Shown here one piece after another: positions 3,130 through 35,043 of a stretch of DNA of 35,043 nt (the stretch's first letter is position 1; each line of letters opens with the position of its first letter). The stretch is from Chiloscyllium plagiosum (Eukaryota). The stretch covers positions 2,926,156 through 2,961,198 of the forward strand of contig NC_057757.1 in the NCBI RefSeq assembly GCF_004010195.1. The letters run 5' to 3'. A program made the position numbers and the translations under genes. Below the pieces are notes generated by a model, which did not search any database, was not told the DNA's origin, and worked only from the letters and a program-made list of their open reading frames with translations.

Positions 3130-3252
3130 CCTGATGAAGGGCTTATGCCCGAAACGTCGATTCTCCTGCTCCTCGGATGCTGCCTGACCTGCTGTGCTTT
3201 TCCAGCAACACACTCTGGACTCTGATCTCCAGCCTCTGCGGTCCTCACTTTC
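3130..3252 (+). mobile_element. Penelope-like pLTR fragment (family B) beginning with a hammerhead motif (3129-3160)
   Basis: TC-CTGATGA-A-GGGC-TTAT-GCCC-GAA-ACGT-C-GA followed by TTCTCCTGCTCCTCGGATGCTGCCTGACCTGCTG; related copies at 6948-7042, 9046-9154, 30437-30612, 32623-32714. Confidence 0.75.
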
Positions 3253-6809: not shown

Positions 6810-7560
6810 GACAATAGACAATACGTAGGCCATTCTGCCCTTCGAGCCTGCACCACCATTCAATATGATCATGGCTGATCATCCTTAATCAGTATCCTGT
6901 TCCTGCCTTATCTCCATAACCCTCGATTCCACTTAAACTCAAGGGTAGCGAGCTGAAAATGTGTTGCTGGAAAAGCGCAGCAGGTCAGGCAGCATCCAGG
7001 GAGCAGGAGAATCGACGTTTCGGGCATAAGCCCTTCTTCACATTAAACTCAAGGGTATACAAGCCCAGTCGCTCCAGTCTTTCAGCATAAGGTAGTCCCG
7101 CCATTCCAGGAATTGACCTTGTGAACCTACGCTGCACTCCCTCAATAGCCAGAATGTCTTTCCTCAAATTTGGAGACCAGAACTGCACACAGTACTCCAG
7201 GTGTGGTCTCACCAGGGCCCTGTACAGCTGCAGAAGAACCTCTTTGCTTCTATACTCAATCCCTCTTGTTATGAAGGCCAGCATGCTATTAGCCTTCTTC
7301 ACTACCTGCTGTACCTGCATGCTTACCTTCATTGACAGGTGGACAAGAACACCCAGATCTCTTTGTACTGCCCCTTTACCTAAATTGACTACATTTAGGT
7401 AGTAATCTGCCTTCCTGTTCTTGCCACCAAAGTGGATAACCATACATTTATCCACATTAAACTGCATCTGCCGTGCATCCGTCCACTCACCTAACCTGTC
7501 CAGGTCACCCTGTAATCTCCTAACATCCTCATCACATTTCACCCTCCCACCCAGCTTTGT
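6810..7560 (-). mobile_element. CR1-type LINE 3' fragment with nested Penelope-like insertion
   Basis: ORF 6985-7542(-) LQGDLDRL..W...QMQFNVDKC...LVRPHLEYCVQFWSP. Confidence 0.9.
6948..7042 (-). mobile_element. Penelope-like pLTR fragment (family B) with 15-bp TSD
   Basis: TTAAACTCAAGGGTA at 6933-6947 and 7043-7057; insert minus strand starts GTGAAGAAGGGCTTATGCCCGAAACGTC region (hammerhead lacking C3). Confidence 0.8.
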
Positions 7561-7913: not shown

Positions 7914-8185
7914 CACTCCCCCCTTCTCCACACCCCCGCTCTCCACCACCCCTCACTCCCCTCCCATCCCCACTGTGAGTCTGTGGTGGTGGTGGTGGGG
8001 GGGGAGGGCCAGACTGTTGTGGGCTGACTGTCGGGATCTTGCTGTGTAATTTGTCGGGCCGTGGCGAGAGCGATGCAGGGACGCAAACCCTTGCTCCATA
8101 TCGGCGAGGGGCGGGGGATGGTATTTTGCGACAGAGGGTTTAATCGTTTCCCCCCCTCCCCCACTCTCTCCCCCCACGCCCACAG

Positions 8186-8581
8186 CAGAGCTGACCTGCG
8201 AGGGGCGAAGTCGGCGGGATCCGCTCACCGTCCGGGGGAGACTTGGAGACGGGGTCCTCCTGCCGTGCGCCTTCGCCTGGAGGGGCCGAAGCCCCGGGAG
8301 GCACATGGTGGTGTGGCAGCTGGACAGCGGTGGGGTCAGGGGTCAGGGTGAGCGGCTGGTGTACGGCTGGGACAGCGAGGGGCCGGGGGACACTGAGGAG
8401 CGCGGCGACCGTTTCACCCACCGCACCAGCATGAGGCGCCGCTGGTTCACCACCGGAGACGCCGGCCTGTCCATCGGCGGACTCTCCCAGGGGGACGAGG
8501 GCACCTACAGATGCTGGGTCACCACCCTCCGGCCTCACCGCAGGAAGCTCTGCTCCGAGGTGACCCTCACCGTCCAACCAG
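8186..8581 (+). CDS. Exon 2: Ig V-set domain, B7-family-like (ICOSL/CD276/butyrophilin type)
   Basis: Pyrimidine tract + CAG acceptor and donor CAG|GTGAGC, both phase 1; 396 nt open. AELTCEGRSRRDPLTVRGRLGDGVLLPCAF...VVWQ...LVY...RFTHRTSM...GDAGLSIGGLSQGDEGTYRCWV...LCSEVTLTVQP has B-strand Cys, C-strand Trp and the D-x-G-x-Y-x-C motif. Confidence 0.9.
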
Positions 8582-8735
8582 GTGAGCGGGCGGGGGGGGG
8601 AGGGGGGGGGGGAAACGGGTCAGTGCCGGGGGGTGGGGCGGGGGTTTAACAATCTCCAACAAACCCCCCTCCCCATCAGCGAGGGACAGCCCACCACACG
8701 CTCTCACCTCGCCAACAATGTCACGGTGTCCCTTG

Positions 8736-9992: not shown

Positions 9993-12900
9993 ACACATGG
10001 ATAAGTGAGACGGGGATACAGGCACGGATTAGTGAGACAGGGTTTACAGACATGGATTAGTGAGACAGGGATTACAGACACGTATTTATGAGCGAGGGAT
10101 GCAGGCACGGATTAGTGAGACAGGAATTACAGAAACGGATTAGTGAGAGTGGGATTACAGGCACTGATTAGTGAGACAGGGCTACAGGCATGGATTAATG
10201 AGACAGGGATTACAGGCATGGATTAGGGAGACAGGGATACAGGCACTGATTAGTGATTCAGAGATTACAGGCATGGATTAGGGAGACAGGGAAACAGGAA
10301 TGGACTAGTGAGTGGGATTACAGGCATGGAATAGTGAGTCAGGGATACAGGCACGGATTAGTGAGACAGGAATTACAGGCACGGATTAGTGACACAGGGA
10401 TATAGGCACAGATTAGTGAGACAGGGATTACAGGCACATATTAGTGAGACGAGGATTACAGATATGGATTAATGAGATTGGGATACTGGCACGGATTAGT
10501 GAGACAGGAATTACAGGCACGGATGAGTGAGACACGGATACAGGCACGGATTAGTGAGACAAAGATTATAGGCATGGATTAGGGAGACAGGGATACAGGG
10601 ATACAGGCACAGATTAATGAGACAGGGATACAAACATGGATTAAGGAGACAGCAATTACAGACTCGGATTAGGGAGACAGGGATACAGGCACGGAGTAGG
10701 GAGACAGGAATTACACTCACGGATAAGTGAGACAGGAATACAGGCACGGAATAGGGAGACAGGAATAAGACACATGGATAAGTGAGACAGGGATACAGGC
10801 ATGGATAAGTGGGACAGGGATTACCGCCATGGATTAGTGAGACACAGACACAGGCACGGATTTGAGAGACAGGGATACAGGCACAGATTAGGGAGCCAGG
10901 AATTATAGATAAGGATTAGTGAGTCACAGATACAGGTACATATTAGTGAGACAAGGCACGGAGTAGTGAGACATGGATTACAGACACAGATTAGTAAAAC
11001 TGGAATTACTGACAGAGATTAGTGATACAGGGATTACAGGCACAGATTACGGAGACATGGATATAGGCATGGATTAGAGAGACAGGGACACAGACTCAGA
11101 TTAATGAGATGGGGATTACAGACATGGATTAGTGACACTGGGATACTGACATGGATGAGTGTGACAGCGATTACAGGCGTGGATTAGGGAGACAGGGATA
11201 CAGGCAAAGAATAGGGAGACAGGGATACAGGCAGAGATTATGGAGACAGGGATTAAGGACACGGATTACGGAGACAGGGATTACGGACACGGATTACGGA
11301 CACGGATTGGGAGACAGGGATTACACGCACAGATTAGTGAGACAGGGATACAGGCACAGATTAGTGAGGCAGGGGTACAGGCACGGATTAATGAGGCAGG
11401 GATACAGGCACGGATTAATGAGGCAGGGATACAGGCACGGATTAATGAGGCAGGGATGCAGGCACGGATTAGTCTGACATGGATACAGGCACGCATTAGT
11501 GAAACGGGATCACAGTCATGGATTAATGAGACAGGGATACAGGCATCGATTAGTGAGACTGGGAGTATAGACACAGATTAGTTAGACACAAATACAGACG
11601 TGGATTAGGGAGACAGGGATTACAAACACGGATTAAGGAGACAGGGATAAAGCACGGATTAGGGAGACAGTAATTAAGGACACGGATTAGGGAGACAGGG
11701 ATTATGGACATGGATTAGGGAGACAGGAATACAGGCACGGATTAGTGTGACAGGGATTGCAGGCACGGATTAGTCTGACATGAATACAGGCATGGATTAG
11801 CAAAACAGAGATTACAAACAGAGATTAAAGAGGCAGGGATACAGGCATGGATCAGTGAGACAGTGATACACACACGGATAAGTGACACAGGGATACAGGC
11901 ACAGATTATTTAGACAGGGACACAGACATGGATTAGTGAGTCAGGGATTACAGACACGGATTAGTGAGACAGGGATTACAGACACAGATTTGTGACACAG
12001 GGATACAGGCACGGATTAGAGAGACAGGGATACAGGCATGGGATTATTGAGAAATGGATACAGGCATGGATTATTGTGACAGGGATTACAGGCACGGATT
12101 AGTGAGAGAGGGATTACAGGCACGAATTAGCCTGACCTGGATACAGGCATGCATTGGTGAGACGGGGATTACAGACACAGATTAGTAAGACGGGGATACA
12201 GACACGGATTTGAGAGAGTGATGCAGGCACGGATTAGTGCAAAAGGGATTACAGGCTCAGATTAGTGAGACAAGGATACAGGCATGGATTAGCGAGACAG
12301 GGATACAGGCACGGATTAATGAGGCAGGGATACAGGCATGGATTAGTCTGACATGGATACAGGCACGCATTAGTGAAACGGGGATCACAGTCATGGATTA
12401 ATGAGGCAGGGATACAGGCATGGATTAATCTGACATGGATACAGGCACGCATTAGTGAAACGGGGATCACAGTCATGGATTAATGAGGCGGCATGGATTA
12501 GTCTGACATGGATACAGGCACGCATTAGTGAAACGGGGATCACAGTCATGGATTAGTGAGACATGGATACAGGCACGGATTAGTGAGACAGGGATTGCAG
12601 GCATGGATTAGTGAGACAGGGATTACAGGCACGGATTAGTGAGACAGGGATTACAGACATGGATTAGTGAGACAGGGATTACTGACACGGATTAGTGAGA
12701 CAGGGATTACAGGCATGGATTAGGGATACAGGGATACAGGCACAGATTAGAGAGACAGGGATTACAGACATGGATTTGAGAGACAGGGATACAGGAATGG
12801 ATTATTGAGAAATGGATACAGGCATGGATTATTGTGACAGGGATTACAAACACGGATTAGTGAGAGAGGGATTACAGGCACGAATTAGCCTGACCTGGAT

Positions 12901-15014
12901 AGAGGCATACATTGGTGAGACGGGGATTACAGGCACAGATTAATGAGACAGGGATACAGGCACGGATTGGGGAGACAGGGATTACAGGCACAGATTAATG
13001 AGACAGGGATACAGGCATGAATTATGGAGACAGGGATTAAGGACATGGATTAGGGAGACAGGTATTACGGACATGGATTAGTGACACAGGGATGACAGAC
13101 ACGGATTAGTGAGACAGGGATACAGGCACGGATTAGTGAAACGGGGATCACAGTCATGGATTAATGAGGCAGGGATACAGGCATGGATTAGTCTGACATG
13201 GATACAGGCACGCATTAGTGAAACGGGGATCACAGTCATGGATTAATGAGGCAGGGATACAGGCATGGATTAATCTGACATGGATACAGGCACGCATTAG
13301 TGAAACGGGGATCAGACAGGGATACAGGCACAGATTAATGAGACAGGGATACAGGCATGGATTAGGGAGACAGGGATTACTGACACGGATTAGGGAGACA
13401 GGGACATAGGCACAGATTAGGGACACAGGGATACAGGCACGGATTAGTCTGACATGGATACAGGTACGCAATAGCGAGACAGGGATACAGGCACAGATTA
13501 ATGGGACAGGGATACAGGCACGGATTAGTGAGACAGTGAGACAAACACGGATTAGTGAGACATGGATTACACAATGGATAAGTGAGACAGGAATACAGGC
13601 ATGGATTAGAGATACAGGGATACAGGCACGGATTAAAGAGACAGGGATTACAGACATGGATTATTGAGAAATGGATACAGGCATGGATTATTGTGACAGG
13701 GATTACAGACACAGATTAGTGAGAGAGGGATTACAGGCACGAATTAGCCTGACCTGGATAGAGGCATGCATTGGTGAGACGGAGATTACAGGCATAGATT
13801 AATGAGACAGGGATACAGGCACGGATTGGGGAGACAGGGATTACAGGCACAGGTTAGTGACACTGGGATACAGGCACGGATTCGTGAGACATGGACACAG
13901 ATGTGGTTTATTGAGACAGGGACACAGGCACAGATTAGTGAGACAGGGATTACAGACACGGATTTGTTAGAGAGTGATGCAGGCCCGAATTAGTGCGACA
14001 GGGATTACAGGCTCAGATTAGTGAGACAGGAATACAGGTATGGATTAGTGAGACAGAGATTGCAGGCACGGATTAGTGAGACAGGGATACAGACACGGAT
14101 TAGTGAGACAGGGATACAGGCACGGATTAGTGAAATAGGGTTTGCAGAATGGATTAGTGAGACACAGATACAGACACGGATTAGGCAAACGGGGATTACA
14201 GACACAAATGAGTGAAATATGGATACAAGCACAAAATAGGGAAACTGTGATACAGGCACGGATTAGGGAGACAGGAATTACACACACGGATAAGTGAGAC
14301 AGGGATACAGGCATGGATTAGAGAGACACAGACACAGGCACGGATTAGTGAGACAGGGATACAGGCACAGTTTAGGGAGCCAGGAATTATAGATAAGGAT
14401 TAGTGAGTCACAGATACAGGTACATATTAGTGAGACAAGGATACAGGCACGGAGTAGTGAGACAGGGATTACAGACACGGATTAGGGAGACGGGATACAG
14501 GCATGGATTAGCGAGACAGGGATACAGGCACGGATTAATGAGATAGGGATACAGGCATGGATTAGTCTGACATGGATACAGGCACGCATTAGTGAAACGG
14601 GGATCACAGTCATGGATTAATGAGACAGGGATACAGGGACGGATTAGGGAGACTGGGATTACAGACACAGATTAGTTAGACACAAATACAGGCATGGATT
14701 AGGGAGACAGTGATTAAAGACACGGATTAGGGAGACAGGGATACAGGCACGGATTAGGGAGACAGGGATACAGACACAGATTAGGGAGACTGGGATTACG
14801 GACATGGATTAGGGAGACAGGGATTACGGATATGGATTAGGGAGACAGGGATACAGACATGGATTAGGGAGACAGGGATTATGGACACGGATTAGGGAGA
14901 CAGGGATACAGACATGGATTAGGGAGACAGGGATTACGGACACGGATTAGGGTGACAGGGATACAGACATGGATTAGAGAGACAGGGATACAGACACAGA
15001 TTAGGGAGACAGGG
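9993..15014. repeat. Minisatellite/satellite, 27-28 bp unit GGATTAGTGAGACAGGGAT(T)ACAGGCAC, about 180 diverged copies
   Basis: Continuous tandem array with recurrent variant blocks. Confidence 0.97.
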
Positions 15015-15534
15015 CACCTCAGCCAGTCAGACTGTCACCCAGGCAGTTAAACGCACACAGAGAGAGGACAGAGAGATGAACAAGCTCAAACCCACACAGA
15101 TCCCAGTGAGATTCAAACTAGAACAAATGTGAAAGATGGACAGGTTCTCTGCTGACAGACTCTGTCTGATTCAGACAGCTTCAAGACTCTTTTAACTTTA
15201 TACATCATGTCTCATCTCAAATGCGTCAGAGAACTGCCTGTGATGTATTTTTTAACACCGTTTAACAATGCGCTCTGGTCTCCATAGATACCATAACTCG
15301 GAGTTGTTTCTTTAGTCTGGCAATCTGATTCCATTTGATGGTTTACACGGACACCCACAAATAACTGGGAAGCTGCCAGAGTAACAACTCAACACCCTCA
15401 CTGAACACAACCAGGCCAAATATCCCACACGGGGAATTCAACAACGTGGCACATGGCTCTCAGGCCGTCCCTCAGGGACATGGCAATGGATGGTTATTCT
15501 GCCAAGCCTTCTGTCAGTGCCTGTATGATCCAAG

Positions 15535-16735
15535 TAACTCTCCCTCTACACCGCCCCCATCGAACCCTCCAAGGACAGGGACAGTACAGGGTTGGATACA
15601 TAGTAAAGCTCCCTCTACACCGTCCCCATCGAACACTCCCAGGGGCAGGGACAGCACGGGGTTAGATACAGAGTAAAGCTCCATCTACACCGTCCCCATC
15701 GAACACCCCCAGGACAGGGACAGTACAGGGTTAGATACAGAGTAAAGCTCCCTCTACACCGTCCCCATCGAACCCTCCCAGCACAGGGACAGCACGGGGT
15801 TAGATACAGAGTAAAGCTCCCTCTACACCGTCCCCATCGAACACTCCCAGGGGCAGGGACAGCACGGGGTTAGATACAGAGTAAAGCTCCCTCTACATTG
15901 TCCCCCATCGAACACCCCCAGGACAGGGACAGTACAGGGTTAGATACAGAGTAAAGCTCCCTTTACACCGTCCCCCATCGAACTCCCGCAGGGGCAGGGA
16001 CAGTACAGGGTTAGATACAGACTAAAGCTCCCTCTACACCATCCCCTTCGAACCCTCCCAGGACAGGGACAGCACGGGGTTAGACACAGAGTAAAGCTCC
16101 CTCTACACCGTCCCCATCGAACCCTCCCAGCACAGGGACAGCACAGGGTTAGATACAGAGTAAAGCTCCCTCTACACTGTCCCCATCAAACACTCCCACG
16201 GACAGGGACAGCACAGGGTTAGATACAGAGTAAAGCTTCCTCTACCCTGTCCCCATTGAACACTCCCAGGACAGGGACAGCATGGGGTTAGATACAGAGT
16301 AAAGCTCCCTCTACACCGTCCCCATTGAACCCTCCCAGGACAGGGACAGCATGGGGTTAGATACAGAGTAAAGCTCCCTCTACACTGTCCCCCATCAAAC
16401 ACTCCCAGGACAGGGATAGCACAGGGTTAGATACAGAGTAAAGGTCCCTCTACACTGTCCCCATCAAACACTCCCACGGACAGGGACAGCCCAGGGTTAG
16501 ATACAGAGTAAAGCTTCCTCTACCCTGTCCCCATTGAACACTCCCAGGACAGGGACAGCACGGTGTTAGATACAGAGTAAAGCTCCCTCTACACTGTCCC
16601 CCATCAGACACTCCGAGGGACAGGAACAGCACAGGGTTAGATACAGAGTAAAGCTCCCTCTACACTGTCCCCATCGAACACCCCCAGCACAGGGACAGCA
16701 CGGGGTTAGATACAGAGTAAAGACTATTCTACCCT
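15535..16735. repeat. Minisatellite, 69-70 bp unit, about 17 copies
   Basis: AGTAAAGCTCCCTCTACACCGTCCCCATCGAACACTCCCAGGACAGGGACAGCACGGGGTTAGATACAG recurs at 15602, 15672, 15741, 15810 etc. Confidence 0.97.
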
Positions 16736-19362: not shown

Positions 19363-20519
19363 AAGTGCAGGAGAAGCAGCAAGAAGAGCAAATGTACCTT
19401 TTATAGATCATGCAAACATACAAATTACTCTCCGGATAAAACAGGCATTGGAACATAGAAAGGCCTGTTATTCAATAGTGACTGATGCGACTGTGGTCCT
19501 GGGGCCCGTGCTGCGTCACACACAGCTCTGTCACTGATTTGTCTGGTTAATGCTGTCGGAGATTTTCAACTTTCAGTTTGGTGTTTCTGAAACTTATCAA
19601 TCAATAACGTGTCGTGTTGTTGCTACGGTGACAGTGCGGTAAAGCTGCTGTGTGATTGGATGAGGAACAGCCAAGGGTGGGTGGTGGGGTGGGGTGGAGG
19701 GTGGTAGAGCTGCCCCACTTGGAGGGTGGGAGATGTGGAAAACACCCTCCAAGACCACACCTTCGCCCACCCATTATCTTTCTGCAACCTCCTCATGTCC
19801 CAAGTCATTGTTATAAATTACAAACCGTTGAGGTCCTAGCACCGACTCCTGTGGCACTCCACTTATTACATCTTACTGCCCAAGGAAAATCCACTTACAT
19901 GTGCCCTCTGCTTTCTGTTAGCCAGTCAATCCTCTGTCCATGCCAGATTAATGCCCAGTGGTTTTGGGTGAGGGGTAGAAACAGATCCCAGGGATCAGGT
20001 GGAATCATGTTGCAGTGTGATGCAGGCTCTTTCCCGCCCAGCTGAGAAATCTCACACCTCACCCAAACAGCAGCCACTTTGGAGAGAGTGTTCCCCCACC
20101 CCCAGGGAGTGTGCACCTGGACTGGGCCTTCACTCTAACTCTCTGCTGAGCTGTGACAGCAGTGGGCCTGCTACTGAACGATACAGTGCTGGAGATCAGG
20201 AGGCTGACCCTGTGGTCTGAGTTCTCCAATGTCTCTGTGTCAGTAAGTGTGGTCAGAGAACAGCAACAGCCCTTCATGCAATCTCTGAGTATGGTAATAC
20301 CCACTCACAGCGCTGCAGCCCTTTGTCTTGCTGATGTATACCTGAAAGTACAGTAATAAGGGCAGCTTTAGAAAGCAGTTTTCACCCAGCCAGCTGACAC
20401 AGATCGATCAGTAGGAGATGCTGAGGAATTTGGTCAAATGTGACTGACAGTGGGGCAGAGTCAGCCTGGGTACTGCCCAGTCAGTCACCACCAGAATCTC
20501 AACAGTGTCCCAAATAGGG

Positions 20520-21377
20520 ACACTCAACACTGGAGCCCCCCAGGGGTGCGTACTCAGCCCCCAACTGTACTCACTGTATACCCATGACTGCGTCACCAAA
20601 TGCCAGACTAATGCCATTTACAAATTCGCTGATGACACCACCATAGTTGGTCGAATCTCAGATGGCAATGAAACAGACTACAGACGGGAGGTGGAAGACC
20701 TGGAAAAATGGTGCACTGAGAACAACCGAGCTCTCAATGCTGGCAAAACCACCTGGGAGTGGTCATCCACAACAAGCTTTCTTGGACTCTTCATGTGGAC
20801 CCACTGGTTACAAAGGCCCAACAATGTCTCTTCTTCCTCAGGCAGCTGAGGAAATTTGGCATGAGAGCAAATTCCCTTGCCAACTTTTATAGGTGCACCA
20901 TCGAGAGCATTCTGTCTGGATGTATCAGTACCTGGTATGGCAACTGTACCATTCAAGATCGGAGATGGTTACAGAGAGTGGTGAACTCGGCCCGGATGAT
21001 CACAAAGGCCAACCTCCCATCTATAGAATCCATCTACCGGGCTCGCTGTCAAGGAAAGGCCGCCAGCATTCTCTAAGATCCATCCCGTCCTGGCAATGCT
21101 TTTCTACAACCTCTACCACCGGGGAGAAGGTACAGAAACCTGAACACACGCACCAGCCGGTTTCAGAACAGTTTCTACCCTCCTGTTGTTAGAATTCCGA
21201 GTGGACTCTCAAACTCTTAACATTCGCCTGTACCTGTGGTTTTGTTGTTGCTGCTGTTCACCTAGTATTTACTATCTATGTTACTTAACTCTGTGATCTG
21301 CCTGTATTGCTCGCAAGACAAAGCTTTTCGCTGTGCCTCAGTACACGGGACAATAAACTCAATTCAATTCAATTCAA
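20520..21377 (+). mobile_element. Rex1/Babar-type LINE 3' fragment
   Basis: NTGAPQGCVLSPQLYSLYTHDC...KFADDTTIVGRI; KAQQCLFFLRQLRKF..FYRCTIESILSGCISTWYGN; ends AATAAA + (AATTC)n. Confidence 0.85.
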
Positions 21378-21517
21378 CACCATTGACCTAATCACAGGGC
21401 GCGGAGCTGTGCTGATCTCATTCCGAACGGGAAAGGAGTGGTGACACACCCACTAAAGGACACAAGAGGATCACTCAGCCCCTCCAAATAGTGTCTGCAC
21501 AGTTTGCACCCATTCTC

Positions 21518-21718
21518 CAAAATGGAGAAAATGCTGGAAAATCTCAGCAGGTCTGACAGCATCTGTAAGGAGAGAAAAGAGCCGACGTTTCGAGTCTAAC
21601 TGACCCTTTTTTTTTAGTTTTGACAAAGAGTCAGTTAGACTCGAAACGTCAACTCTTTTCTCTCCTTACAGATGCTGCCAGACCTGCTGAGATTTTCCAG
21701 CATTTTCTCTTTATTTGG
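21518..21718. mobile_element. Palindromic (head-to-head) Penelope-like pLTR insertion with 14-bp TSD (family D)
   Basis: Arms 21525-21606 and 21628-21709 are inverted with 4 mismatches; TTGCACCCATTCTC at 21504-21517 and 21719-21732. Confidence 0.85.
21616..21654 (+). ncRNA. Hammerhead ribozyme motif, U3-A8 core variant
   Basis: AGTT-TTGACAA-A-GAGTC-AGTTA-GACTC-GAA-ACGT-C-AACT: perfect 4-bp stem I, perfect 5-bp stem II, GUC site. Confidence 0.65.
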
Positions 21719-22414
21719 TTGCACCCATTCTCACTGCGCTGAAGGCTGGGGTGCCGAGGTTGGGGACAGAGAGTTCGGCACCAGCACTACCTCCTCATCG
21801 CTGTCCAAGTGCTAAAAGCGAGAGAGAGTGAGGAGCATGGGGGGGGGAAGCCGAGGGTGGGAACCAGTCTGGTCTCACCAGCTCCTGAACCCTGTGCACT
21901 ATCGCTGTGTGTGTCTCCCTCCTCCCCATCTGCACGCTGTCACTCCTGGAGGCTCACCATCAGGTAGTGAGCGAGGGGAAGCTCTGACAGGCGCGAACAT
22001 CAGGACTGAGTGAAGGAAGGCAGCTGGTTAATGAGCTGAGCCAGATGGATCTCTGCCCAGTGCCCTGGTGCACCAGCACTCAGTCCTCTCAGTGTGAAAG
22101 GCAGGAGCTCAGATTTCTAATGAAGAGGTGCTGAGCATTAAACACCGAGTGATAATTGCTCAAATTTCACCAGCACCAGGTAGCGGGATAAATATTTGAT
22201 TAAACAAAAAGGTTATGCAGAGCAAGTGGAGAGTAAAAATAGATGAATGCTTCTTGGAAATGCTTCTCGTTTACTGTACTCACTGTGACCGTTCATAGCA
22301 TTGCTTCATTCCATGTATAGACCTCTGTCAAAAGGCAGCCTTACAGTTACATTAACACCACATACAAGCTCAGGACATTCCAAATGGCTCTCCAGCTCAT
22401 TCAACAGTTGTTTC

Positions 22415-22708: not shown

Positions 22709-23441
22709 CCAGTGCTGAGGGAGTGCTGCACTGTTGGAGGGTCAGTGCTGAGGGAGTGCCGCACTGTCGGAGGGTCAGTGCTGAGGGAGTGCCGCACTGT
22801 CGGAGGGTCAGTGCTGAGGGAGCGCCGCACTGTCGGAGGGTCAGTGCTGAGGGAACGCCGCACTGTCGGAGAGTCGGTGCTGCCGCACTGTCGGAGGGTC
22901 AGTGCTGAGGGAGCGCCGCACTGTCGGAGGGTCAGTGCTGAGGGAGCGCCGCACTGTCGGAGGGTCAGTGCTGAGGGAGCGCCGCACTGTCGGAGGGTCA
23001 GTGCTGAGGGAGCGCCGCACTGTCGGAGGGTCAGTGCTGAGGGAGCGCCGCACTGTCGGAGGGTCAGTGCTGAGGGAGCGCCGCACTGTCGGAGGGTCAG
23101 TGCTGAGGGAGCGCCGCACTGTCGGAGGGTCAGTGCTGAGGGAGCGCCGCACTGTCGGAGGGTCAGTGCTGAGGGAGCGCCGCACTGTCGGAGGGTCAGT
23201 GCTGAGGGAGCGCCGCACTGTCGGAGGGTCAGTGCTGAGGGAGCGCCGCACTGTCGGAGAGTCAGTCCTGAGGGAATGCTACACTGTCGGAGGGTCAATC
23301 CTGAGGGAGCGCCGCACTGTCGGAGGGTCAGTGCTGAGGGAACACCGCACTGTCGGAGGGTCAGTGCTGAGGGAACACCGCACTGTCGGAGGGTCAGTGC
23401 TGAGGGAGCGCCGCACTGTCGGAGGGTCAGTCTGAGGGAGT
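22709..23441 (+). repeat. Minisatellite, 33-bp unit CAGTGCTGAGGGAGCGCCGCACTGTCGGAGGGT, about 22 copies
   Basis: 11-aa periodic ORFs; homogeneous centre with diverged edges. Confidence 0.97.
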
Positions 23442-24465: not shown

Positions 24466-24860
24466 GGGTTGTGATCCATTGGGATTGGGTACAGTGGGAG
24501 TGAATGGGAAGGGTTGTGATCCATTGGGATTGGGTACAGTGGGAATGAATGGAAGGGGTTTGATCCATTGGAATTGTGTACAGTGGGAGTGAATGGGAAG
24601 GGTTGTGATCCATTGGGATTGGGTACAGTGGGAGTGGATGGGAAGGGGTTTTGATTCATTGGGATTGGGTACAGTGGGAATGAATGGGAAGGGTTGTGGT
24701 CCATTGGGATTGGGTACAGTGGGAATGAATGGGCAGGGGTTTGATCCATTGGGATTGGGTACAGTGGGAGTGAATGGGAAGGGTTGCGATCCATTAGGAT
24801 TGGGTACAGTGGGAGTGAATGGGAAGGGGTTTGATCCATTGGGATTGGGTAGAGTGGGAA
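24466..24860. repeat. Minisatellite, 45-bp unit GGGTTGTGATCCATTGGGATTGGGTACAGTGGGAGTGAATGGGAA, about 8.5 copies
   Basis: 15-aa periodic translation; five GGG runs per unit. Confidence 0.95.
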
Positions 24861-30436: not shown

Positions 30437-30612
30437 CAGGCAAAAGTGAGGACTGCAGACACTGGAAATCAGAGTCTAGATCAGAGTGGTGCTGGAAAAG
30501 CACAGCAGGTCAGGCAGCATCCGAGGAGCAGGAGAAAGCCCTTCATCAGGACTGAAGGCAGGAGCCTCCAGGGTGGAGAGATAAATGGGAGGGGGGTGGG
30601 ATGATGAAGGGC
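30437..30612 (-). mobile_element. Penelope-like pLTR fragment (family B) with inverted 12-nt cap and 14-bp TSD
   Basis: TCTTACTTCTG(T/C)CC at 30423-30436 and 30613-30626; GCCCTTCATCAGG near 30538 and inverted ATGATGAAGGGC at 30601-30612. Confidence 0.75.
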
Positions 30613-30968: not shown

Positions 30969-31904
30969 GGACAGGCAGGAGGCTGGGGGAACCCAGCAAG
31001 GCAGGCAGCATCAGGAGGGACAGGCAGGAGGCTGGGGGAACACAGCAAGCCAGGCAGCATCAGGAGGGACAGGCAGGAGACTGGGGGAACACAGCAAGCC
31101 AGGCAGCATCAGGAGGGACAGGCAGGAGGCAGGAAGAACACAGCAAGCCAGGCAGCATCAGGAGGGACAGGCAGGAGGCAGGAAGAACACAGCAAGCCAG
31201 GCAGCATCAGGAGGGACAGGCAGGAGGCAGGAAGAACACAGCAAGCCAGGCAGCATCAGGAGGGACAGGCAGGAGGCAGGAAGAACACAGCAAGCCAGGC
31301 AGCATCAGGAGGGACAGGCAGGAGGCAGGAAGAACACAGCAAGCCAGGCAGCATCAGGAGGGACAGGCAGGAGGCAGGAAGAACACAGCAAGCCAGGCAG
31401 CATCAGGAGGGACAGGCAGGAGGCAGGAAGAACACAGCAAGCCAGGCAGCATCAGGAGGGACAGGCAGGAGGCAGGAAGAACACAGCAAGCCAGGCAGCA
31501 TCAGGAGGGACAGGCAGGAGGCAGGAAGAACACAGCAAGCCAGGCAGCATCAGGAGGGACAGGCAGGAGGCAGGAAGAACACAGCAAGCCAGGCAGCATC
31601 AGGAGGGACAGGCAGGAGGCAGGAAGAACACAGCAAGCCAGGCAGCATCAGGAGGGACAGGCAGGAGGCAGGAAGAACACAGCAAGCCAGGCAGCATCAG
31701 GAGGGACAGGCAGGAGGCAGGAAGAACACAGCAAGCCAGGCAGCATCAGGAGGGACAGGCAGGAGGCAGGAAGAACACAGCAAGCCAGGCAGCATCAGGA
31801 GGGACAGGCAGGAGGCAGGAAGAACACAGCAAGCCAGGCAGCATCAGGAGGGACAGGCAGGAGGCAGGAAGAACACAGCAAGCCAGGCAGCATCAGGAGG
31901 GACA
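30969..31904. repeat. Minisatellite, 49-bp unit GCAGGAGGCAGGAAGAACACAGCAAGCCAGGCAGCATCAGGAGGGACAG, about 19 copies, derived from a Penelope-like end
   Basis: Period 49 (31141, 31190...); preceded by ACTGCAGATGCTGGAATC as in the family B copies. Confidence 0.95.
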
Positions 31905-32109
31905 GGGAGTCGGTGGGTGGGAGGGGAGATGGGGACTGGGAAGGGAGTCATGGCTGATCATCCGCCCCAGGCCCCTGTTCCCGCCATCTCCCCAAAGCCC
32001 TTTGATCCCTTTCGTCAAAACAAACAAGAACATACTGCGTCTTGAAGAGACAATGTTTCGGCGATTTTTGCCTCAGGTTGATGAGACGTATGTACGTTAG
32101 CTCGCTGAC

Positions 32110-33830: not shown

Positions 33831-34789
33831 AAGCCCTCATCTATCTTCTCCATGCCCCAGTGTAATGGGTCATGAGGAAAAGATGGAGGGCTCAGAGTTA
33901 ACCCAATGCCTTAGGTGCTTGGGCTGTAACTAATTGAGTGATTTCCACATCCAATTTGATTTTAATTACAGCAGATTGTGAATACTAATGTACGTGAGCA
34001 CTAACATTTGGGGAGAGTCCGAGAAATCTGATAAATTCTAATTCATTGTCTTCTGGTCACTGATTGGTCAGAACAATAATTTTATTTCAGAATAGACAAC
34101 ATTGCAAATGATTGAATAAATGGCAAGTTACAGACTCGGGGAAATGCACAGTTCAGAAAGAGGCCAACAGCCCACTGAGAGTGTGAGGGCTGTTTGAAAG
34201 GAACAAGTAATTCCACTCTCCTGCTCTCTCCCTATAGTACAGTCAGATTTTCTTCAAGTATTTCTCCAACGCTGGTTTTGAAAGTTATGATTGAATCTGC
34301 CTCTCAGGCCTGTCAGTGCATTCCAAATCACAACAACCTGCCACATTAAAACAAACATTTCTTCAGACTGCCTCTGGGTGTTTCTCCAATCTCCTGAAAC
34401 CTGTCTCCGCTGTCTCTCCTGTCACTGCAAGTAGTTTCCCTTCATTCACTCAATCAAACCCACTCAGCAGTATTCCTGCACTCTGATAGCTTCACCAACA
34501 GCACGCAGTGAGAGGGGGAGAGGGACACAGAGACTGCCTTTAGCTTGGACACTGCTTCTGTGCTGTCTCACATTCTCTATCCAACTCTCTTCCTTTCCAA
34601 CCTTTTTCCACCTTGCTATCTCTTGTTCTCTGCCGAGTGATTTATTCATTTCCTGCCCAAATGCATATCCTCTCTCTGTCTTCACATCCCTCCTGTTACC
34701 ACCAAAACCATCTCCTGTTCTTCTGACCTCAATGTCTCCTTATTGTTCTTTTGATGCTCTCACCATATCCTTTTTATACATCCCATAGT

Positions 34790-35043
34790 GGGGCACTCCC
34801 TCAGCGCTGACCCTCCCACAGTGTGGCACTCCCTCAGCACTGACCCTCCGACAGTGCAGCACTCCCTCAGCGAAGACCCTCCCACATGCGGCACTCCCTC
34901 AGCACTGACCCTCCGACAGTGCGTCACTCCCTCAGCACTGATCCTCTGACAGTGCAGCACTCCCTCAGCACTGACCCTCCGACAGTGCGGCACTCCCTCA
35001 GCACTGACCCTCCGACAGTGCGGCACTCCCTCAGCACTGACCC
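34790..35043 (-). repeat. 33-bp minisatellite, inverted relative to 22709-23441, runs off the window
   Basis: GCACTCCCTCAGCACTGACCCTCCGACAGTGC units. Confidence 0.95.

Follow-up and report, generated by a model that had tools for sequence, protein, structure and literature searches.

The window, by which we mean the whole 35,043-nucleotide stretch of Chiloscyllium plagiosum DNA analysed here, carries on its plus strand a small hammerhead motif with a U3-A8 core. The motif sits in a 201-bp fold-back insertion (21518-21718), as part of its right arm, and the sequence around it is a Penelope-like retroelement's (PLE) pseudo-LTR (pLTR). The relevant features are the following.

21504..21517 (+): left target-site duplication, 14 bp; an exact 14-mer found otherwise only at 21719
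21518..21609 (-): inverted, 5'-truncated pLTR arm, with stem II, GAA, ACGU, C17 and tail present
21604..21615 (+): arm junction; CCCTTT (21604-21609) fits both arms
21616..21654 (+): minimal type I hammerhead motif (min-HHR) with U3-A8 core, from direct reading and family copies
21616-21619 (+): stem I, 5' strand, AGTT
21620 (U3), 21625 (A8), 21626 (A9) (+): positions of the core TTGACAA
21627 (+): extra A between A9 and G10.1
21628-21632 / 21638-21642 (+): stem II, GAGTC / GACTC, 5 bp with a 5-nt loop
21643-21645 (+): GAA
21646-21649 (+): stem III, ACGT (ACGU in RNA), a palindrome without a loop
21650 (+): C17, with the predicted cut directly after it
21651-21654 (+): stem I, 3' strand, AACT
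21655..21718 (+): remaining pLTR arm, reaching the shorter of the two 3' ends common in the family and ending in TTTGG
21719..21732 (+): right target-site duplication, 14 bp
21524..21710 (no strand assigned): fold-back of both arms, a predicted hairpin of ~85 bp (-146 kcal/mol, z -21.8)
3130-3162 (+), 7015-7040 (-), 30530-30552 (-): copies of a second min-HHR family, C3-G8 (GGGC), with 55,034 exact genomic matches

The three copies of the C3-G8 family comprise one complete copy, one truncated in the core and one without the 3' half of stem II. An open frame at 8050-8646 (+) encodes an immunoglobulin V-set domain (PF07686, E 1.3e-06) and is likely a host exon; no further exon of it was found among the 35 plus-strand open reading frames of at least 70 aa in the window. 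A broken LINE-type reverse transcriptase fragment (PF00078, PF09004) lies at 20448-21073 (+), ~450 bp upstream of the insertion, and is unrelated by motif to the Penelope reverse transcriptase (RT). Tandem arrays occupy 9999-15014, 15533-16722, 22710-23440, 24466-24859, 30969-31906 and 34787-35043, with units of 27/55, 69, 33, 45, 49 and 33 bp; the unit of 49 bp is similar to the C3-G8 Penelope family's tail.

Re-reading of 21616-21654 returned every element first described there, namely the TTGACAA core, stem I (AGTT/AACT), stem II (GAGTC/GACTC), GAA and GTC. The sequence-only reading thus had the letters right, and it overlooked the extra A at 21627 and the loop-less stem III. It also did not recognise the motif as a min-HHR of the dimer type, located at the end of a Penelope-like element, or see that a fold-back hairpin buries the window copy. 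Since stem III is ACGU without a loop, a single molecule is unable to close it. The motif has the features of the min-HHRs of PLEs: core boxes YUGANRA and GAAA..UH in which 3-8 can pair, an extra nucleotide between 9 and 10.1 together with a G10.1-C11.1 pair, and a palindrome at 15.1-16.1 with no closed stem III (ACGU, 21646-21649). Stems I and II also covary across families, in 11 hand-picked motifs that are related and so do not represent independent events; in this alignment 91.6% of cells are paired and 5 of 10 pairs show two-sided change, against 22-37% for slid controls. Pairing in stems I and II and at 3-8 is retained among these same related motifs, for the 3-8 change as one event.

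The motif does not correspond to the canonical monomeric type I hammerhead of Rfam, as stem III is unclosed and the Rfam model found no match at E up to 1. At that threshold the scan of the window returned zero hammerheads, the C3-G8 copy near 3130 included, and only hairpin-driven miRNA matches far below threshold. Because the C3-G8 copy was equally missed, the minimal shape, not U3-A8, accounts for the Rfam result. In folding calculations, the lone motif of 45-53 nt folded only modestly better than shuffled sequences (z -1.3 to -2.1), and the hammerhead was not the fold of lowest energy. The ACGU duplex of stem III is predicted to be worth -1.7 to -3.1 kcal/mol. The probability of the hammerhead fold was 0.002 for the window copy and up to 0.024 for a family copy, in competition with a hairpin in which core and cut site are paired to each other; this hairpin was the lowest-energy form of every copy folded, at -9.9 kcal/mol with U3-A8 versus -13.5 in a C3-G8 copy.

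The window copy has several features of its own. Its 39-mer is unique in the genome by exact match, and its stem I, AGTT/AACT, is private to it, the family form being AGCT/AGCT. The sequence CGAAACGT has 4 matches in the window versus 0.09 expected, an excess that, like the anchor matches given below, is not due to chance. The left arm, whose match lies at 21585-21592 on the minus strand, lacks core positions 3-9 and has a run of A in their place. At the junction, CCCTTT would represent microhomology, and the T tract at 21604..21615 is the sequence that the family usually carries immediately upstream of stem I. The insertion would have formed from two cDNAs primed at nicks 14 bp apart and joined head to head. 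A transcript of either strand is predicted to fold into one long hairpin that buries the ribozyme, and no second complete motif with which it could pair lies near the window copy; on these two grounds the window copy is probably inert.

We regard it as very improbable that the 200-bp palindrome is a separate non-autonomous element, MITE- or retrozyme-like, or an intronic ribozyme used by the host. The clean 14-bp duplication, the near-perfect arms and the position of the Ig V-set exon, ~13 kb upstream on the same strand, would suit such an origin, but the exact motif is single-copy, palindrome centres vary among copies, and the majority of copies have a single arm or are joined to pieces of open reading frame. 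The buried core, the second arm without positions 3-9 and the lack of a further Ig V-set exon among the 35 plus-strand frames also speak against it. Nor does the locus resemble a non-LTR retrozyme, with its head-to-tail tandem non-coding units of one hammerhead each, as no tandem array covers the site and the arms are inverted.

To determine the family state of positions 3 and 8, we used an anchor from stem II to the cut site that leaves out the core, which gave 1,520 exact matches in the 3.56-Gb genome and 0 for a reversed control. At the first 30 loci retrieved in this way, TTGACAA followed AGCT in 19 and CTGANGA in none, the remainder being mostly 5'-truncated. Genome-wide, with stem I and the other stems fixed, U3-A8 was present in 791 of 823 copies (96%); the other states were G3-A8 (11), C3-A8 (10), U3-G8 (5), U3-C8 (3), and A3-A8, G3-G8 and C3-G8 with 1 each. 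The family tail has 2,609 exact genomic matches, and the family comprises at least 2,600 copies. Anchoring on this tail gave a sample of 96 arms, 56 of which extended in register to stem I; U3-A8 was present in 51 of these 56, and all core letters were retained in only 12 of them. Among 30 loci picked by the endonuclease (EN) protein alone, 15 of 16 readable cores were U3-A8 and the sixteenth was U3-G8. One locus picked in this way (L314) has the C3-G8 motif of another family behind it.

The GGGC family served as a C3-G8 control. In the first 100 matches listed from its 55,034 exact matches there were 97 C3-G8, 2 C3-A8, 1 U3-G8 and 0 U3-A8, and a looser loop pattern applied genome-wide found 27 U3-A8. 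Decay in a C3-G8 family therefore yields ~0.05% U3-A8, against 96% here, which argues that U3-A8 is not a product of decay. That the window copy alone has decayed, or has taken its Ts from the neighbouring poly-T, has next to no probability left: the copy does have private changes and abuts a T tract, and U3-A8 does arise in ~5 of 10,000 copies of the C3-G8 family, but the genome counts, with U3-A8 after AGCT in 791 of 823, refute it.

These counts settle much of what the sequence-only reading had proposed. U3-A8 is the family consensus (791/823 anchored copies). The two circumstances that it had named as contradicting it, a CTGANGA consensus and Ts borrowed from the poly-T, are ruled out by the single C3-G8 copy among 823 and by TTGACAA after AGCT in 19 of 30 loci, respectively. 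Its claim that the family would be invisible to a strict CUGANGA descriptor holds, given the consensus, and for annotators this means that such searches skip whole families. Its description of a compensatory double change rather than decay stands in its second half (791/823); selected compensation is only likely, as it is inferred from one evolutionary event.

To characterise the carrier, we examined long copies of the family, in which a GIY-YIG reading frame ends ~400 nt upstream of the motif (match to PF01541 at E 0.003-0.004, under the curated cut-off) and the open reading frame (ORF) starts ~150 nt downstream of it. In 20 loci taken from the 40 best matches to the ORF start, an intact U3-A8 core lies upstream of the start in 8, and none of the 20 has an unbroken ORF. 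Two near-complete copies (L138, L152) run in the order N-terminal region, RT, thumb, EN and motif; they have broken frames and carry an inverted copy of the motif at their 5' end. This order is that of EN+ PLEs, a single ORF with RT and, at its C terminus, a GIY-YIG domain, the copies' own Pfam matches being weak and under the cut-off. For the RT piece, 154 longer relatives were found. Of the 120 listed, most contain PF00078 and PF26215, and many also PF01541, in single long proteins. The best named RT relatives among the matches listed are shark proteins, and a comparison of the RT piece with solved structures gave no match.

The termini agree with this assignment. EN+ PLEs are described in PMC8557442 as having a pLTR with a hammerhead at both ends, an inverted 5'-truncated copy and an optional 30-40 bp tail, and the family has a hammerhead pLTR at both ends, the inverted 5'-truncated copy and the optional tail of 30-40 bp. 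The RT-EN linker in the translation of one locus (L006) reads CNRRRCNTC (CxxxxCxxC), in agreement with the CX2-5CxxC pattern of the Neptune clade; the same source gives this type of linker as common to Neptune and Nematis, and judged by its sequence the linker fits either. In many copies (L137, L139, L140, L142-L145, L147, L148, L150, L151, L153, L154) only a 5' portion of the ORF, of varying length, is present, and it runs straight into a second motif beginning at stem I. These fusions look as if a short leader cDNA had jumped onto the RNA of a broken element.

Related families in the same genome indicate the direction of the change. A sister family of greater age shares the tail type and carries G8 and another loop. 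It has 113 exact C3-G8 matches and 486 tail matches, and its loop was found in 0 of 41 U3-A8 matches with a changed loop. In an endonuclease tree (26 natural copies, 300 columns, midpoint root) the U3-A8 family forms a clade (94/95) nested in three C3-G8 lineages. As related families carry C3-G8 and the U3-A8 clade nests among them, U3-A8 is likely derived from C3-G8. In the old family, anchored on the tail, 18 of 30 loci were kept and 12 dropped for poor register; G8 was present in 14 of the 18 and U3-A8 in none, and position 3 was noisy (C 6, T 5, G 4, A 3), the sample being decayed.

Three copies, L105-L107 (G000 C49:7256033 and two small contigs), all carry C3, with G8 in one and A8 in two, and include the sole C3-G8 copy of the 823. 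We considered them as an ancestral C3 subfamily and rejected this, as there are only 3 members and L105 and L106 share flanks over 3.6 kb, which identifies these two as one duplicated insertion. Their placement in the tree has an AU p of 0.40, on a branch about twice as long as the others. This old insertion may be either a relic of the ancestral state or a reversion.

The tails of the U3-A8 and the old family differ at 21-31% of sites. In the motif, seven columns clearly differ, namely 3, 8, 7, 17, two loop bases and one stem position changed from A-U to G-U; that is, positions 3 and 8, four free positions and one stem position that keeps its pair. An eighth column (I.3) is a near tie due to truncation. 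Random placement reproduces this pattern in about 1 to 2 of 10,000 cases, a figure that presumes uniform change and is driven mostly by the kept stems and core; the presence of both 3 and 8 among the seven changes, taken alone, has p 0.065. The double change was likely selected as compensation, a conclusion that rests on one event. C7-G8 is a CpG and would offer an easy path to A8, so that a likely course of events is that C7-G8 decayed as a CpG to C7-A8 and C3 changed to U, in either order, with U3-A8 preserving a Watson-Crick pair at 3-8.

The 5' ends of copies bear on how the family is copied. The sample comprised 96 arms, taken from the top of a list of 100 places, and these all lie on a single contig. 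Of these, 50 start at the 5' edge of stem I, 28 of the 96 exactly at its A, and 1 at the cut site; 11 extend at least 40 bases upstream. The frequency of starts at stem I (50/96) versus the cut site (1/96) argues that the template is uncut RNA. A TATA-like box lies 30-33 nt above the stem I A in 59 of 63 family matches and in 9 of 9 C3 matches, counted without removal of duplicates. Transcription would accordingly be expected to start at the stem I A, ~31 nt below this box. A signature of cap copying, an extra G before AGCT, was present in 19 of 58 (p 0.058) and is not supported. The T tract followed by AG may also act as a splice acceptor. Ends at -2, which this predicts, occur in 12 of 96 arms, but ends at -4 are commoner (28/96) and several of those at -2 arose by microhomology.

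A close parallel is the Poseidon element PAc of Anolis (Frangieh et al. 2024), for which PMC11167929 reports that RT starts at two internal sites and that both DNA strands are nicked and extended. Its hammerhead cuts only with protein and requires pairing between 3 and 8, and uncut RNA serves as the predominant template; mutation of the core does not stop insertion in vitro, and none of the reads terminates at the cut site. The present family is alike in that a hammerhead lies where pLTR and ORF meet, that two 3' ends (tail) are preferred and that inserts derive from uncut RNA. It differs from PAc, which is C3-G8 with the ORF start inside the ribozyme, in that the ORF starts ~150 nt downstream, and also in its CxxxxCxxC linker, as in Neptune/Nematis. 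We propose that reverse transcription begins inside the 5' leader and runs to the 5' end on uncut RNA. An internal RT start with both strands primed, as in PAc, would account for the short solo copies, the two preferred 3' ends and the fold-back insertion. Following the model in PMC4209133, the motifs at the 5' and 3' ends of a full element would pair with each other by way of ACGU, and cutting after GUC would trim the RNA. By analogy with PAc, the copies from uncut RNA and the insertion of core mutants in vitro suggest that cutting may be dispensable.

This leads to the main alternative, in which the ribozyme is dispensable, U3 and A8 are two common transitions (one of them at a CpG) fixed by drift in a master element, the pair is coincidental, and the motif persists as a leader close to the promoter or as RNA that binds protein. 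In its favour are the single copy of 96 that starts at the cut site, the weak stem III and the p of 0.065 for 3 and 8, as well as the PAc core mutants that insert in vitro and the absence of reads ending at the cut site (PMC11167929), and the Naiad elements, which flourish without canonical hammerheads (PMC8557442). Yet 11 fixed core and closing positions and the ACGU palindrome are all kept between families whose tails are 21-31% apart, neither C3-A8 nor U3-G8 forms a large subfamily (10 and 5 of 823), and the same U3-A8 swap is found in Penelope motifs of Schistosoma (PMC4209133). We therefore hold drift to be unlikely, and consider it probable that the motif is the pLTR hammerhead of a PLE family in which U3-A8 is standard and likely replaced C3-G8 under selection for predicted cutting that depends on a dimer or on protein, the window copy being a short, probably inert fold-back.

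The U3-A8 core, which the sequence-only reading had presented as if new, has been published before. Perreault et al. (2011; PMC3088659) described natural U3-A8 covariation and reported such ribozymes to be active in vitro. The likeness lies in U3-A8 in place of C3-G8; the passage concerned covers hammerheads generally, whereas the motif here has no closed stem III. Cervera and De la Pena (2014; PMC4209133) described U3-A8 in min-HHRs of Schistosoma mansoni PLEs (Cercyon), with a descriptor of its own and ~1,300 hits, and min-HHRs in PLEs are given there as having low activity even as dimers. As far as the available text of that paper goes, the two share the type I topology, the absence of a stem III loop, the palindromic 15.2-16.2, the extra base at 9/10.1, the G10.1-C11.1 pair, a short stem I, the pLTR location, mostly solo or inverted copies and the U3-A8 core. 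Stem II is 5 bp here and 7-8 there, the present case is one homogeneous family with countable C3-G8 sister families, and its cartilaginous-fish-like host is not mentioned in that text. The structural basis of C3-G8 is treated in PMC3884650. The literature searched held no U3-A8 reports beyond PMC3088659, PMC4209133 and PMC3884650, and no shark or chondrichthyan Penelope hammerhead; the supplement of PMC4209133, which may list shark motifs, lay outside the search. The variant and its Penelope link are known, and what is new is a well-counted example, with no new principle.

The role of Penelope hammerheads is unsettled in the literature (PMC8557442, PMC7761336, PMC11167929). A family-wide U3-A8 alongside C3-G8 sisters within the same genome amounts to a natural paired test for selection on catalysis. 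Tentatively, a vertebrate Penelope lineage may have switched from C3-G8 to U3-A8 by way of a hot spot at a CpG and afterwards multiplied to thousands of copies, leaving one old C3 insertion as a relic, and the switch might be read as natural evidence that cutting matters in vivo, considering that U3-A8 also weakens the inactive hairpin between core and cut site (-13.5 to -9.9 kcal/mol). If true, cutting would matter to Penelope elements in vivo although inserts are copied from uncut RNA.

Transcript data were also inspected. One poly-A single-cell run (~2% read) and three contig sets showed no point at which many molecules begin or end. Contigs under three other organism labels include pieces that span the motif and start at stem I, and among the 40 matches listed (75 more lie beyond these) they show no difference at positions 3 or 8. 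Another min-HHR family, with a long stem II, a CACTGATGA core and C3-G8, occurs as inverted pairs at two further loci, L061 (4567 + and 5262 -) and L008.
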